DNA of 63,949 nt, counting the filler, from Reclinomonas americana ATCC 50394 (taxonomy: Eukaryota): assembly GCA_048213135.1 (NCBI GenBank). It is 8 parts of 4 records of this genome, joined end to end, with 100 filler letters (N's around TTAATTAATTAA, not from the genome) between each part and the next. Parts side by side here need not be neighbours in the genome. Positions count along the whole stretch, not along the records: positions 21,601 to 43,266 come from PS015133.1; 7 more parts are not named here. One strand, written 5' to 3'. Under the pieces are notes generated by a model. That model worked only from the letters and a program-made list of their open reading frames with translations. It ran no database searches and was not told the origin of the DNA. Both the position numbers and the translations under genes were made by a program. Of this stretch, positions 33,301 through 41,400 are shown in pieces. Every line of letters starts with the position of its first letter. Position 1 is the stretch's first letter.

Positions 33301-36300
33301 TCCGCGCGCATCGTACTTTCCCTCTGCCATCATCGTTCTTTGCTCACCGCACGCAAACCACCAGCTGTGCGTACTGAGGCGGCTCTTGAGTTGTGCCGTC
33401 GAGGTTCGGTGTAATGGTGGTTACAGCGGTGACGCCAGCCGAGATCGACACGGTGGCCGGGCGCACCACACGCAAGTTTGTTACGTCGCTGTCCAACGTG
33501 TTATTGGTGGCGGTGCACGGCGACGTGTTTGCTGCCGACCCCGTGGGAGGCAGACGAAGCACAATGTCGACTCCACTCAGCGGCATGGCGACACCCGACA
33601 GTGTGAGTGTCGAGGCCGTGAGGTTGCTGACAGTGAGCGGAGAGATGCTGCCGAATGTCGACTCTGTTTGAAAACATAGTCAGTGAGCCACTTCTGCTGG
33701 AACTTTCTGTGCAAGAAAAAACAACAGACCAGTGACTTGGATGCCATTGCCCGCCACTGGGAGGAAAACGTCGGACCACTGGCTTGGGCTAGCGAGACAT
33801 TTGTCAGGTTAGTCAGATGGGTCACGAACATGCGCAAATCGTTTGCGTCACTGCATACTCACCGAATGCAGAAAAAGTACCGGTTGCCAAGCATCGACGG
33901 TTGCGTAGTAATGGACACAGTGACGCGGGAGCTGTCCGTCGTGTCGACGGTCGGCGTGCCGAGTTGTATCACCGAGGCAAACGTGCTCTTATTTGCGCAG
34001 TCGTCAACGCTTGTCGCCGCCACCAGTTGCACATCTGACGACGCCCAGCCAAAAGAAAAACGGTGAGCAGAGAGTCGACAGCAGAGTCGAGAAGCAGTGA
34101 CACCCACCTGCTGTCAACAGCGAGCCCGACAGTGTGAGAATAGAGGTACCGAAGGGCGAGATCTGCGTCGGCTGGATTGAAGACACGGATCCTGCACACA
34201 ACACACACGTTAGCGTCACGACGTCTCCTCCTCATCTCATTTTTGTCACACCCCGCGTACCAGCACAGGCCGGTCCAAAGGTGCCATTGGTGCACACCGG
34301 CAGTGTCGAGAATGCAAGTGGTGCCGAGAGGCCCGACTTGCCGGCCGCAGTATCGGTGAAACGCACACGCACATACAGCGGTGTGTTGGCAGAGAGCATG
34401 GTCTTGGAGGCGGTCACTGTCACCGACGATCCCGTCGTGCCCGCAAACGGGCCAGTCAAGGGCGGCGACAATGGCAACACCTCGAACGCGCCTGCAAAAG
34501 TGCTGGAAGACGACAACTCAAAGGTGACCGACGTCAACGAGTTCGGCTGCAGGTACACGGTGCTGGTGAAGACGACGCTTGTCGGTCGCACGTTCGACAA
34601 GGTGACAGTGGGCGCTGCGTGGCATTGTGAGTGAGACAGCAACTCCAAGTGACACAGCGATAAAGCCGCGGGTAATGTGACGTACCGATAGAGACGATCA
34701 ATGTGAGCTCGTCCGTAGCGCCGGCGGCGTCTTGCGCTCGGATCGTGACAAAGAGGATCGGTTTGGCGACACCCACCTGCTCCAGCCACAGCTGATTTCC
34801 GCTCCGCAGGCTAAACGCGGCTGCGTCTGCGCCGCCGATAATGGTAAACGTCACCGCCTGACCCACATCGGCGTCCACGTCGACTGCCGACACGGTGCCG
34901 ATGCGAGCGGCGACCGTCGACGGCGGCGTGTACTCGGAGGGCGACAGGAGAATAGCAGAGGGTGGAGTGTTGGTGGCTGCGTAATGAAACGCAGATCAGA
35001 GACGGCAAGGGGAAGTGAACGGAGCACAACACGTCACGAGATGAGAAACGCACCGGAAATGGTAAACGTGACGTCGAGCGTCAGCAGTTGCTTATCGGCC
35101 ACGCGAACAGTGACATTGAGGCGTGGCTTCGTGACATTTGCGCCCTCCAACCACAGCTCGTTCATGTTGCGAATGCTGAAGGAGGCTCCGTCTCCGTCGC
35201 CAGCCACAATCGAGTACGTGCCGACGTCACCCGGATCCGGATCGTTATTTGTCAGAGTGCCAATCTTGACCGGCCCTGTGGACGGGCGGTCGTACACGGC
35301 CGCCGAGATGAACATGGCGGTGGGCGGATCGTTCTGCTCCGGCGTGGTGAATGTGACTGCGTCGCCACCGTAGACGGCCGTGTCGGGTGTGACCGTAATC
35401 GCCCGCACAATATACGTGGTCAACTGCACCAGATTCGTGGGCGTTGCGGTGGCACTGACGGTAGTTCCGGTACTCGCCACGGCTGGCGCTGGTACGACCA
35501 AGTTGGGCGCCATTTGCAAGCGGCGCACAACTTGCACGCCGTCGATCGTGTACTCTGTGCGATTCGTGTTAGGAGAGAAGAACCCATCGAAGCAGCGGAG
35601 AGAGAATTTCCTCACCGGAAAAGTACATGTTGGCGTTGTCGGCAAACACTCCGCCGTACTGTACATGAAAGAAACACCAGGTGAGAAACAACAACTCACC
35701 TGCACAATTCAATACATTAACAAGCAGGCGTACCACCCAGTCAAACACGGCATTGGCGATGGTGCCATCCTGCACGCCGTACACACCGATGCGGCCAGTA
35801 ATGGTGGTCAGCTGATTCGTCCACAGATCAAAGGTGTGGATGCCAGCGTAGTAGTCCTGCGCGAGAGGCGTCAGCGACATTTTCGGGCACAAAATGAGAA
35901 GTGATGAGCAGCCGTGCGCAACATCGACAATGTACAACACCGACTTGTCCGGTCGCAACACGAGACCGACAGCGGAGCCCAGCAGGCCGGCATTGTTGCT
36001 GCCACCAATCGTCAACTGCACTCCGCACGTACCGGCCAGTACTGTCGCCGAGTCGTCATACACGGGCAAACGCATGACGCACGTCGGTCGCGGACCACTG
36101 GACACATAGAGGATGCCGCTATCGGTGTCGAGAGCCACTGCTTGAGGGTTGGTGAAGCGTGCGGCGACGGAGCACTGTCCCGCAGCGTAACCGGCGGTGC
36201 CACGTGCACCGCACATGACCGTCACGTTGGTGCCGTCGGTGTTCAGCGACCTACGAAAGCCGAGGTGAGCACGGCTGCACTGCACAAGCACGCATACGCG

Positions 36301-39300: not shown

Positions 39301-41400
39301 TTGGGGAGGAGGTCGACGAGGCGGACGAGGTGCAGGTCTTGTTCGAAGGAGAAGTCTGCGGGAACACAGGGAAAGGGGTGGTGAGGAGGGGGCAAGAGGG
39401 GAAGAGAGAAGGCGGAAGAGAGAAGGGGAAGAGAGAAAGGGGAAGAGAGAAAGGGGAAGAGAGAAAGGGAAGAGAAAGGGAAGAGAAAGGAGAGAAGGGA
39501 AGAGAAGGGAAGGAAGAGGAGAGAGGGGAAGAGATGGGGAAGAGATGGGGAAGAGAGGGGGAAGAGAAGGGGGAAGAGAGGGAGAACAGAGGGGGAAGAG
39601 AGGGGAAAGAGGGGGAAGAGAGGGGGAAGAGACGGGGAAGAGATGGCAATGCAGCAGGAGAAGAATTCACCAGTGAGAAAGAATAAAAGATGCACGAGCA
39701 GGTGTCTGCACTGCAACAGGAGCCGAGAATCACGAGATCCCACAGCCATCAAACTAGGTGACTCACCCGTCACATACAGCGTTGCGCCATCGGTGAATGT
39801 GGCACCCCCCTATTGGATACGATTAAGCAACAAGTTCGATAGAGTAGCTCGCTTAATCTAAATGCTCACCAGAGTGCGGAAGAGAGCAATCGCAGATCCA
39901 CTCTGAATGCCAGACTGACCGGCTTGCCCGATCACCGTGCTGACGAGGGAGGTGGCAAATTGAAACACGCGAATGCCCGCGTAGCCAGCCTGCAGGCAAA
40001 CAACAGGAGAATAATGGAGATGAGAACAACGGCACCCAATGAGCGTCTCCACAAGAACGCAACATCCAGAATGTAGAGTGCATCGCTGCTGGGCGAGAGC
40101 ACAAGATTGGAAATGGAGAAGAAGCGGGCGACTGTGGTGTTGCCGTCTGTGTATCCAGTGGACTCGAGTACTCCGGTGACCAGCGACAAGGTGCGAGTCT
40201 GCAAATCAACGCGCAAAACGGCCGATCCGAGACCACTCGAAGTGTACAAGGCCTTGCCGGCTACATCCAGCGCAATACCGCCAGGGAACCTAAAGCGGGC
40301 CACGCTGGTGCAGTCGCCGGTGGTCAAGTCGTCAACAAACCGCTTGCCACAGTACACGGTGAGCGCAGAGCCATCGGTTTTCATGTACCTGCACGAGCGA
40401 AAACGGTGAGACCCGTTTTCCGCACTCACACGCATCTATCACACGTGTGACTCACATAATAGTTTGCGCATAGCGATCAACCATGTATACAGCATCGCCA
40501 GCCCCGTCTACGGCGATGTCATTGATATAGATGAATGGCGACGAAGTGCCGTCGTCGTTTGGCGTCCACGAACTGTTTCCGTCGGCCACCGTAAAGGTGG
40601 TCGCAGAGTCCAGTTGAATGCGACGAACGGACGTATTCTGCGCCGAGTGAGAATGAGGGAAACAAACAGAGGCGAAATGCATTGCGTTCGTCGAGTGTGC
40701 AACGCAACATCGGCGACATAGAGGACACCGGGTCCGACCGCCGTCTCGTCAATGGCGACACTTGTTGGACTGTGCATTTTCACGCGAGTATAAGAGTTGA
40801 GTGACGGAGTGCGAGGCGTTGATGCGCACGGTCACTCGACGACGCAACGCTTCAAACTGAGCCGTCAGCGGATCGCCGTCTGTCGCTGTACCACATGTCG
40901 TGCCCGTCAGCGTCGATACAGTGCCGGTGGAGGTGGAGACGACACGAATGCGACAGCCGCTGTTGGTATGTCTACAGTGAGAGGGAGCGTAGAGGACTCA
41001 ACACCAAACACCAAACAAGTGGCACGCAACTAGAGCTCCGTCACGTATAGATTGCCACTCTTGTCGGTGACAATGCCCTGTGCCATTGCTCCACAGGTCA
41101 GCGATCTTGCAACAAGAGCGGCGAGGAGACTGGAGCAAGCGACGCAACAGTAGGTGCAAAGAACTGCGCATTCTGTCGAGACCCGTCGACACCATTAGAC
41201 GCCGCCTGCGATCCGGCATAGGTGGAGACCGCCGGCGAGAAATCGGCAGTCGAGGCGCCAAATTGGAAGTAGTTGGTGAACGGTAGAGAAGAGTCGCCGT
41301 TCACAATGGTGCCATGCAGCGTGGCAGTGGACGTGGCCACATCCATGGCCGCGGTAGTGGTGGCCGACGATGCCGCAGCGAGGCAGGAGGTGACTGTCGA
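30314..41400 (-). CDS. Giant single-pass surface protein: 3x (FN3-like + NHL propeller), 2 cadherin-like repeats, Ig/TIG-like repeats, TM helix, acidic cytoplasmic tail; 5' end in gap
   Basis: NHL motifs (DG...A.F..P.GI..D..GNLYV.E...RVR). Cadherin-like NDPPT...[36 protein letters not shown] followed by RRRRRR near 31950-32040. Confidence 0.82.

Follow-up and report, generated by a model that had tools for sequence, protein, structure and literature searches.

Donor class and last exon base in the old introns of a gene with three tandem modules in Reclinomonas americana

Introduction

Are introns that start with an unusual 5' splice site (donor) recent arrivals, left behind by a transposon that carries its own splice signals, or can one and the same old intron pass from one type of donor to another? 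This question is raised by a minus-strand gene in a stretch of 63,949 nucleotides (nt) of DNA from the eukaryote Reclinomonas americana ATCC 50394 (GenBank assembly GCA_048213135.1). We refer to the whole stretch, which is made of eight parts of four records joined end to end, as the window, and all positions count along it; positions 21,601 to 43,266, where the gene lies, come from PS015133.1. The gene encodes three tandem modules, each made of an FN3-like domain and an NHL-type propeller, and about half of its introns begin with GTTGCG or GTTACG. The original prediction, made from the sequence alone, was that five intron positions are shared by the three modules, that three of them keep GTTGCG after an exon base other than G while two switch donor class, that the classes interconvert by compensatory evolution, and that they are not the footprint of a recent intron-generating transposon.

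The explanation that we consider the best overall, with a probability of roughly 0.78 on the evidence of the sequence, is that these are old introns, triplicated together with the modules, and that two donor types interconvert with the last exon base. Below, a slash separates the last exon base (position -1) from the first intron base (+1), and H stands for A, C or T.

Intron positions in the three modules

In the modelled part of the gene (41415..35037), removal of 24 introns leaves a single open frame of 1458 codons. The model consists of 25 exon segments and 24 introns, all of which begin with GT and end with AG; the donors were set by eye and the acceptors were picked by frame continuity. 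Three modules follow one another, each with a first exon of about 146 residues and then an NHL-type propeller of six blades:

39767..41415, minus strand: module C, a partial FN3-like exon and an NHL-type propeller; the outgroup by identity (37.5% to A, 38.4% to B)
37525..39355, minus strand: module B, an FN3-like exon (38916-39355) and an NHL-type propeller
35616..37454, minus strand: module A, an FN3-like exon and an NHL-type propeller; 46.5% identical to B; Pfam NHL match in exon 36319-36503

These protein identities (37-47%) come from a MAFFT alignment of the three modules, and the grouping of A and B as sisters is read from them, with no outgroup or tree. In this alignment, which was the check named in the original prediction, seven internal introns occupy identical columns (155, 170, 209, 232, 293, 404 and 445) with identical phases, and the eighth shared intron is the phase-1 intron found at each module boundary. 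There are eight positions common to all three modules (i1 to i8), with phases 0, 2, 2, 0, 2, 0, 0 and 1; the five positions that had been predicted are all among them, and three others (i5, i7 and i8) had been missed. The introns are 60-79 nt long except for one (C i8, 411 nt):

41078..41148, minus strand: C i1, phase 0, ACT/GTTGCGT, 71 nt
38843..38915, minus strand: B i1, phase 0, CGA/GTTGCGT, 73 nt
36934..37002, minus strand: A i1, phase 0, CGA/GTTGCGT, 69 nt
40960..41030, minus strand: C i2, phase 2, TA/GTTGCGT (Tyr codon), 71 nt; switched position
38723..38795, minus strand: B i2, phase 2, GG/GTGAGT (Gly codon), 73 nt
36822..36886, minus strand: A i2, phase 2, GG/GTGCGT (Gly codon), 65 nt
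40770..40848, minus strand: C i3, phase 2, GC/GTTGCGT, 79 nt
38539..38605, minus strand: B i3, phase 2, TC/GTTGCGT, 67 nt
36634..36704, minus strand: A i3, phase 2, CA/GTTGCGT, 71 nt
40638..40708, minus strand: C i4, phase 0, GAT/GTTGCGT (Asp), 71 nt
38403..38471, minus strand: B i4, phase 0, CAA/GTTACGT (Gln), 69 nt; one mismatch from GTTGCGT
36504..36572, minus strand: A i4, phase 0, CAG/GTGAAT (Gln), 69 nt; switched position
40389..40455, minus strand: C i5, phase 2, AT/GTGAGT, 67 nt; a canonical donor with a base other than G at -1
38153..38220, minus strand: B i5, phase 2, AG/GTGAGG, 68 nt
36251..36318, minus strand: A i5, phase 2, CG/GTGAGT, 68 nt
39990..40063, minus strand: C i6, phase 0, GAT/GTTGCGT (conserved Asp), 74 nt
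37755..37821, minus strand: B i6, phase 0, GAT/GTTGCGT, 67 nt
35857..35922, minus strand: A i6, phase 0, GAT/GTTGCGC, 66 nt
39810..39869, minus strand: C i7, phase 0, CTG/GTGAGC, 60 nt
37568..37637, minus strand: B i7, phase 0, GTG/GTTTGT, 70 nt; donor ambiguous
35659..35733, minus strand: A i7, phase 0, GTG/GTACGC, 75 nt
39356..39766, minus strand: C i8, phase 1, G/GTGAGT, 411 nt, GA-rich microsatellite; module boundary
37455..37524, minus strand: B i8, phase 1, G/GTGAGC, 70 nt; module boundary
35555..35615, minus strand: A i8, phase 1, G/GTGAGG, 61 nt

All 15 donor coordinates given in the original prediction carry the sequence it assigned to them on the minus strand. The nine donors said to be constant (37002/38915/41148, 36704/38605/40848 and 35922/37821/40063) are all H/GTTGCG and lie at homologous positions, and the two positions said to switch do so: 36886 and 38795 versus 41030 in phase 2, and 36572 versus 38471 and 40708 in phase 0. 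In the gene, the 12 donors that read GTTGCG or GTTACG all follow A, T or C, whereas 11 of the 12 others follow G, the sole exception being AT/GTGAGT at 40455 (C i5). The long intron C i8, the only one of its kind in the three modules, contains an imperfect GA-rich microsatellite, with GGGAAGAGA-type repeats on the plus strand.

Judging from these alignments, the introns are old and were present before the internal triplication, since their positions and phases are common to modules that are only 37-47% identical. The same arrangement could also have been reached by parallel gains, each module having independently acquired introns in the same proto-splice sites after the duplications. Nothing specific speaks for such gains; repeated motifs (LYVxD and the like) could in principle have presented the same target in each module. 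However, we consider them highly improbable, for the coincidence would have to extend to eight positions out of eight, with identical phase and in all three modules, and the exon words that flank the introns differ (ACT/, CGA/, GAT/, CAA/, CAG/), so that there is no common target word.

Assignment of the junctions

One may ask whether certain GTTGCG junctions have been placed wrongly, the real cut being made at another GT, at a GC or at a shifted site. The junctions were placed by frame, paralogy or homology, and predictors that ignore paralogy often took other in-frame GTs. An ab initio finder based on codon log-odds, GT/YAG ends and a branch motif, with no donor model, recovered 13 of the 24 introns and skipped short exons; a second one, to which a two-class donor matrix over positions +3 to +8 was added, recovered 12 of the 24. 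The second finder served as a list of leads, and the predictions of both were excluded from the statistics. In addition, the donor of B i7 is ambiguous: an alternative at 37625 (GTC/GTGAAT) lies 12 nt away, is in frame and adds four residues, and the pair 37637/37625 could be a tandem or alternative donor.

On the contrary, the modules align without any gap across every GTTGCG junction, including those at i2 and i4, where another copy is unambiguously canonical, which argues for the GT as the point of cleavage. Moving the cut by one base (to give an intron that starts with TT) and taking the GC at +4 as the donor were both considered and rejected, as either creates a TAG stop at C i2. Further support comes from homologues of two unrelated genes, coding for a kinase and for an S28 peptidase:

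49842..49904, minus strand: intron of a MAP3K-epsilon/Cdc15-like kinase gene, GTTGCG class, GA/GTTGCGC, 63 nt; an exact 21-residue gap in 4/4 homologues aligned (4 of the 120 listed)
46612..46684, minus strand: second GTTGCG-class intron of the same kinase gene, CC/GTTGCGT, 73 nt; flanked by blocks of homologue alignment
44876..44953, minus strand: intron of an S28 prolylcarboxypeptidase gene, GTTGCG class, C/GTTGCGT, 78 nt; predicted junction P-Y-T-T, as in a homologue

Taken with the correspondence between a 63-nt intron and a gap of exactly 21 residues, these observations leave a gene-model artefact as an improbable explanation, if marginally less so than parallel gain. The same kinase gene also has an intron of 60 nt at 49058-49117 (minus strand, CCG/GTACGG ... 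CAG), which is in frame and stop-free; retaining it would add 20 residues and leave the frame intact, and the homologues show a 20-residue gap.

Donor word and last exon base in the window

The module paralogues are not independent, and the gene displays about two switching events. The statistical weight of the association therefore rests on the window as a whole, which is GC-rich (about 57%) and has many short introns. Its two strands together contain 38 copies of GTTGCGT, compared with 11.45 +/- 3.44 in 100 dinucleotide-preserving shuffles, none of which reaches 38; this is a 3.3-fold excess. The word preceded by G, GGTTGCG, is at the level expected by chance (8 occurrences versus 10.21 +/- 3.30 in the shuffles).

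Among the 92 GTTGCG sites of the window, eight follow G. We counted a site as intron-like when it is followed by the branch motif and then by YAG at 50-130 nt, which retains 39 GTTGCG sites; these are preceded by T (16), A (15) or C (8), and never by G. When an open-frame filter is added, GTTGCG is the most enriched of all candidate donor hexamers (30 of its 92 sites pass, while the share for GT sites taken together is 9.7%); G precedes none of these 30 sites, whereas it precedes 8 of the 10 GTGCGT candidates. A stricter filter, based on the codon score of the flanks, left 23 candidates, including seven GTRMG, all after G, and two GTTRCG, after A and T; it was dropped because it retained too few sites, and the open-frame filter was used instead. 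The GTTGCG candidates are scattered on both strands, inside and outside the gene with the three modules.

The class is defined by the specific word GTTGCGT and not merely by a T at +3, since GTTGAG is at background (3 intron-like sites out of 30) and T is found at +7 in 25 of 32 GTTGCG candidates.

The association is sharpest in a curated set of 31 introns, those supported by paralogy or homology: G is present at -1 in none of the 15 GTTGCG-class introns and in 15 of the 16 others (Fisher p = 5.7e-8).

The window contains a segmental duplication (18813-20923 and 22851-24986, 89.6% identical over 2176 nt) which bears a kinase-type gene. The GTTGCGT donor of this pair (19881 and 23902) is unchanged, while the donor that follows G differs between the copies (AG/GTGCTT versus AG/GTGAGT). 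This suggests that the intron side of the donor is tight when G is missing from -1 and loose when it is present. Indeed, the donors tolerated after G include GTGAGN, GTGCGT, GTACGC, GTAACT, GTCCGC, GTGAAT and GTTTGT.

Two kinds of 5' end on one type of intron

Apart from the donor, the introns of the two classes resemble each other. The median length is 71 nt in the GTTGCG class (n = 15) and 68 nt in the others (n = 16); 12 of the 15 and 13 of the 16, respectively, have a branch motif (CTSAC or CTCAT), whose median distance to the 3' end is 18 nt in both cases; and the acceptor is CAG in 15 of 15 GTTGCG-class introns, and CAG in 13 and TAG in 3 of the 16 others. As far as can be judged from these signals, both classes belong to the major type and differ in their 5' end, and they would be removed by the same major spliceosome, given their common length, CTSAC branch site (some 18 nt before the 3' end) and CAG acceptor.

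U12-type introns are known to convert to U2-type introns at homologous positions in paralogues. Our case resembles theirs in that a second class has a rigid 5' motif which does not depend on a G as the last exon base, and in that conversion is revealed by paralogous introns. It differs in all the signals: the donors do not correspond to the U12 motif RTATCCTT, the U12-type branch site TCCTTRAY is found in 0 of the 31 curated introns, and neither the acceptor nor the branch motif and its spacing sets the GTTGCG class apart from the ordinary one.

Introners are intron-generating transposons, described in Micromonas, Aureococcus and others, and they too produce numerous short introns that are uniform in length and have an end in common. 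The GTTGCGT introns could be the footprint of such an element carrying its own donor, and their invariant common start of 7 nt and uniform length (63-79 nt for the 15 curated introns) give them a superficially repeat-like appearance. Beyond that start, however, they have no body in common. When the first seven and the last four bases are left out, the mean local alignment score of the intron bodies is 13.4 over 253 pairs, versus 12.2 (standard deviation 2.2) for shuffled sequences; pairs at homologous positions reach 13.7 and non-homologous pairs 13.3, and the best matches are branch-site words. The pairs within the GTTGCG class (mean 13.9) do not stand out from the same control, and their maximum is a match of 13 nt at the branch site. 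The bodies thus show no visible similarity, as had been predicted, and their common part is limited to the branch motif.

A blastn-short search with the 24 introns of the gene against the 64-kb window detected no second copy of any intron; it returned self matches, internal repeats of C i8, and three microsatellite matches of 15-16 nt outside the gene (C i8 and B i8). Direct repeats at the junctions, which would be the trace of target-site duplications, are not in excess (mean of the longest repeat 3.84, versus 3.99 with a standard deviation of 0.92 in a shuffled-partner control), and the length of perfect terminal inverted repeats is 0 in 31 of 31 introns. Moreover, the same positions are filled in three modules that are 37-47% identical, which implies that the introns are old, and canonical introns with the same length and the same 3' signals exist beside them. 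For this window, an introner origin is therefore about as improbable as parallel gain, and on this point the original prediction is upheld.

Interconversion of the donor types

We propose that a module which already bore eight short (about 60-80 nt) GT-AG introns was duplicated internally, and that the positions and phases of the introns were kept while their bodies diverged beyond recognition. One type of donor is ordinary and G/GTGAGT-like, with an exon that ends in G and a fairly free intron side. The other is a discrete H/GTTGCGT, with seven nearly invariant intron bases and a last exon base that is never G. This last base is fixed by the codon: the Asp codon in GAT/ cannot end in G, a Gly codon interrupted as GG/ provides a G, and a Tyr codon interrupted as TA/ does not. 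A change in the protein, or a synonymous change from A to G, would then be followed by the donor on the intron side.

The exon ends are consistent with this proposal. The introns at i6, and i4 of module C, follow a conserved Asp of the NHL blades (GAT/). At i2, the exon ends in GG/ (Gly) in A and B and in TA/ (Tyr) in C, while at i4 Gln is encoded by CAA/ in B and by CAG/ in A. The homologous introns would differ in class at i2 and i4 because the donor follows the last exon base set by the codon. Since homologous introns belong to different classes at two positions, with the class tracking the last exon base, the idea that the classes interconvert holds; that the cause is compensatory, as the original prediction had it, is what we infer from this pattern. 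If A and B are sisters, i4 would have been of the GTTGCGT type in the ancestor and would have become ordinary in A with the synonymous change from A to G; the GTTACGT of B i4 looks like an intermediate.

A different course of events, in one direction only, is a serious rival, although we consider it less likely than not. GTTGCGT may be needed only when the exon does not end in G; once a G has appeared at -1, selection would no longer hold the motif, which would decay into the far wider range of GTNNNN donors that are tolerated, and at equilibrium G/GTTGCGT would be rare rather than forbidden. The looseness of the intron side after G fits this scheme, as do the recent duplicates, which differ at the donor after G (GTGCTT versus GTGAGT) and not at GTTGCGT. 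The i4 series (GAT/GTTGCGT, CAA/GTTACGT, CAG/GTGAAT) resembles a stepwise decay after the synonymous A-to-G change, and GTG/GTTTGT at 37637 could be a decayed form. However, if transitional G/GTTGCG states persisted over several substitutions, a few would be expected; there is no G before the 30-39 intron-like GTTGCG sites, no clear transitional donor of this kind was seen, and GGTTGCG is at chance level.

Recognition of the GTTGCGT donor

GTTGCGT is an unusual word of seven bases that a standard U1 small nuclear RNA (snRNA) should bind badly, and how it is read is a separate matter. The mechanism that we prefer, tentatively and with well under even confidence, is a non-canonical register. GUUGCGU may be regarded as the canonical heptamer G/GUGCGU with its second base changed, so that the GU lies one base upstream; this would displace the helix with U1, and later with U6, by one base or put a one-base bulge into it.

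We calculated pairing energies with two U1 5' ends, either of which may differ from the organism's own: the canonical one and a G5 variant, similar to what has been reported for Mastigamoeba. In two exon contexts, GUUGCGU gives -1.8 and +0.5 kcal/mol with the canonical end, and -5.6 and -4.2 kcal/mol, in a shifted pattern, with the G5 variant. For comparison, the values for the canonical end and the G5 variant are -12.2 and -9.0 kcal/mol with cag/GUGAGU, and -5.5 and -3.0 kcal/mol with H/GUGAGU.

Another hypothesis, a little less probable in our view, is that the second class has a reader of its own, a further U1-type snRNA with a 5' end (ACGCAAC) that complements GUUGCGU; there would be two parallel donor codes, and switching would be a hand-over from one snRNA to the other. 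Seven nearly invariant intron bases, including the T found at +7 in most candidates, look like a base-pairing target, and the word, which pairs poorly with the canonical and G5 ends, pairs well, by construction, when the end is its complement (-10.3 to -11.9 kcal/mol). That GTTGAG stays at background also indicates that the class is more than GTGAGT, the commonest canonical donor, in a shifted form. As precedents, bioRxiv 10.1101/2022.06.08.495308 describes U1 and donor pairs that co-evolved in Entamoeba and in Mastigamoeba, and mentions mixed U1 variants for Physarum. On the other hand, a search of the window at the Rfam gathering thresholds gave 0 matches, and so no snRNA gene, the identical 3' signals of the two classes imply that only 5' recognition would differ, and a dedicated snRNA does not by itself explain why G is excluded from -1.

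It is also conceivable, though again we would not count it as likely, that the organism has a major spliceosome with two codes, in which about half of the introns are H/GUUGCGU, a donor exclusive of G at -1 and read by a U1 variant or in an obligatory shifted U1/U6 register, and that introns at fixed, ancient positions pass back and forth between the codes as the flanking codon changes; such a spliceosome would be hitherto undescribed. We also considered whether the GTTGCG start pairs with a complementary word of its own intron, but the counts are unconvincing (4 of 15 GTTGCG-class introns versus 1 of 15 others).

Points against the interpretation

Several observations weigh against the idea that the donor class follows the last exon base. 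All the junctions rest on frame, paralogy or homology, and the window-wide counts depend on motif and open-frame filters rather than on gene models. Taken alone, the two switches would coincide with the -1 base by chance about once in nine times, and their direction was deduced for i4 only. A change at -1 was tolerated without a switch of class at 40455 (AT/GTGAGT), which shows that the lack of G at -1 does not force GTTGCGT; the alternative donor of B i7 would make a second such exception, and in the opposite sense there is one candidate, unverified, in which GTTACG follows G (ctg/GTTACGT at 3960). Regarding recognition, a register shifted on a standard U1 fails to explain why GTTGCGT should be used in preference to GTGAGT when G is missing from -1, given the weak energies, and none of the models that we tested accounts for an exclusion of G from -1, as opposed to its being simply dispensable there.

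Comparison with known systems

It is well known that the exon and intron halves of a donor compensate for each other, a G at -1 offsetting weak positions +3 to +6 and vice versa; this is seen in the donor statistics of human and other species, for instance in maximal dependence decomposition and in comparative work. The donors described here show the same dependence, inasmuch as the absence of G at -1 requires a strong intron side, a G at -1 leaves the intron side loose, and the two sides change together. The difference is that the strong side is a separate word, GTTGCGT, which never occurs with G at -1, so that the dependence is bimodal and not graded.

Human 5' splice sites can pair with U1 in shifted, bulged and asymmetric-loop registers (Tan et al. 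2016, PMC4856993, which cites Roca and Krainer for the shifted register); the validated non-canonical registers account for about 1.5% of human sites and are heterogeneous. A GU placed one base upstream, as in our donors, follows the logic of the +1 shifted or +3 bulged register, and the shifted test site ACA/GUCAAGUAUA of the same article likewise has a base other than G at -1. What is different in R. americana is that one fixed word is found in 15 of 31 curated introns, and that its pairing with a canonical U1 is predicted to be very weak.

Among protists, bioRxiv 10.1101/2022.06.08.495308 describes GUUUGUU donors in Entamoeba, which form one class (about 88-90% of introns) and go with a U1 that reads AACAAAC, and GUGCGC donors in Mastigamoeba balamuthi, with a U1 that reads ACGUAC; it also mentions standard and modified U1 variants in Physarum. 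M. balamuthi has a GC content of 60.7%, 3.4 introns per gene, and GUGCGC donors in introns with a mean length of 137 bp (PMC8136499). The likenesses to these two systems are an extended and strictly kept word, a U at +3, a preference at +7, a GC-rich and intron-rich protist, and a C after G in the donor. On the contrary, there is one class in Entamoeba, whereas here two classes coexist and are sorted by the last exon base, and neither the GUGCGC donors nor the mean intron length of M. balamuthi match the window.

Among the papers listed by full-text searches, none deals with a GTTGCG, GUUGCG or GTTGCGT donor; an account of it may exist in a supplement or a subscription journal, or with a different name for the donor. 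Exon/intron compensation, non-canonical registers and lineage-specific donor words are established. What sets the present case apart is the combination of two discrete classes, a rigid word of seven bases in 15 of 31 curated introns, its exclusion of G at -1, and interconversion at ancient positions.

Protein modules and other features of the window

The NHL label given to the modules in the original prediction is supported weakly. One of the six exon translations (exon 36319-36503) passes the gathering cut-off of the Pfam NHL family (23.3 bits for a cut-off of 20), and a PDB match of one exon is to SOQ1, an NHL propeller protein (E = 1.3e-5), which speaks for the label. On the other side, exon 38221-38402 stays below the threshold (16 bits) and the other four of the six have no match. 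The FN3-like exon matches 1794 proteins at E <= 0.001 in a representatives library, but no Pfam family at E <= 0.01; among the 150 matches listed, which are 27-41% identical, the six proteins that were scanned are all multi-FN3 proteins. With the NHL exon as the query, no protein was found at E <= 0.001 among longer proteins. Close orthologues of the gene were not found either, the search of representatives with the FN3 exon giving generic multi-FN3 proteins among the matches listed.

The 5' end of the gene is probably within the N gap at 41522-42198. At its other end, the gene runs on below 35037; the region downstream of module A (31000-35554, minus strand) has further repeated domains and introns, including some with a GTTGCGT donor (32415, 32127) and some whose donor follows G (35053, 34685, 33862). 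Pfam assigned no family to two exons tested from this region. A crude predictor also proposed two minus-strand donors, gtg/GTTTGCGT at 33358 and tga/GTTTGCGA at 31658, that have the GTTGCG word with one extra T; they could be variant members of the class or decayed ones.

The neighbouring genes code for an S28 prolylcarboxypeptidase (43600-45100, minus strand), a sialate O-acetylesterase-type (SASA) protein (51499-53240, minus strand) and TPR_10/TPR_12 repeat proteins (21553-22650, minus strand). None has a close relative in the protein databases, which suggests that the lineage is poorly sampled: the best match is 74% identical over 59% of the query (S28 peptidase), and named S28 matches are at 34-40%. 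The best matches of the kinase, among those listed, are 53-63% identical and come from scattered eukaryotes.

Long microsatellites, (ACTC)n, (CT)n and the like, at 7300-9500 and 12300-14200 give rise to spurious open frames (SLTHSLTH..., SLSLSL...). They adjoin a carboxylesterase-type gene, whose motif is in the frame 7304..9424 (minus strand), and possibly lie in its introns. Last, the window has seven joins of the form N44-TTAATTAATTAA-N44, with a six-frame stop linker, at 10221-10320, 12225-12324, 21501-21600, 43267-43366, 45839-45938, 50383-50482 and 58283-58382, five of which have a simple-sequence repeat directly beside them, on one side or both. As the other N runs vary in length, this may reflect a two-stage scaffolding of the assembly.

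Significance

The triplicated introns provide an internal control, which indicates that the unusual donors are cut at GT, that they are ancient and not born from a transposon, and that their class can change with the last exon base. In practice, gene finders with one donor model will mis-annotate such a genome, as is illustrated by the naive predictors, which found about half of the introns. If the pattern is true genome-wide, with about half of the introns being H/GUUGCGU, R. americana would be a natural system for the study of 5' splice-site recognition outside the canonical U1 register, and also of the co-evolution of snRNA variants with donor classes and of the coding constraints on splice signals.

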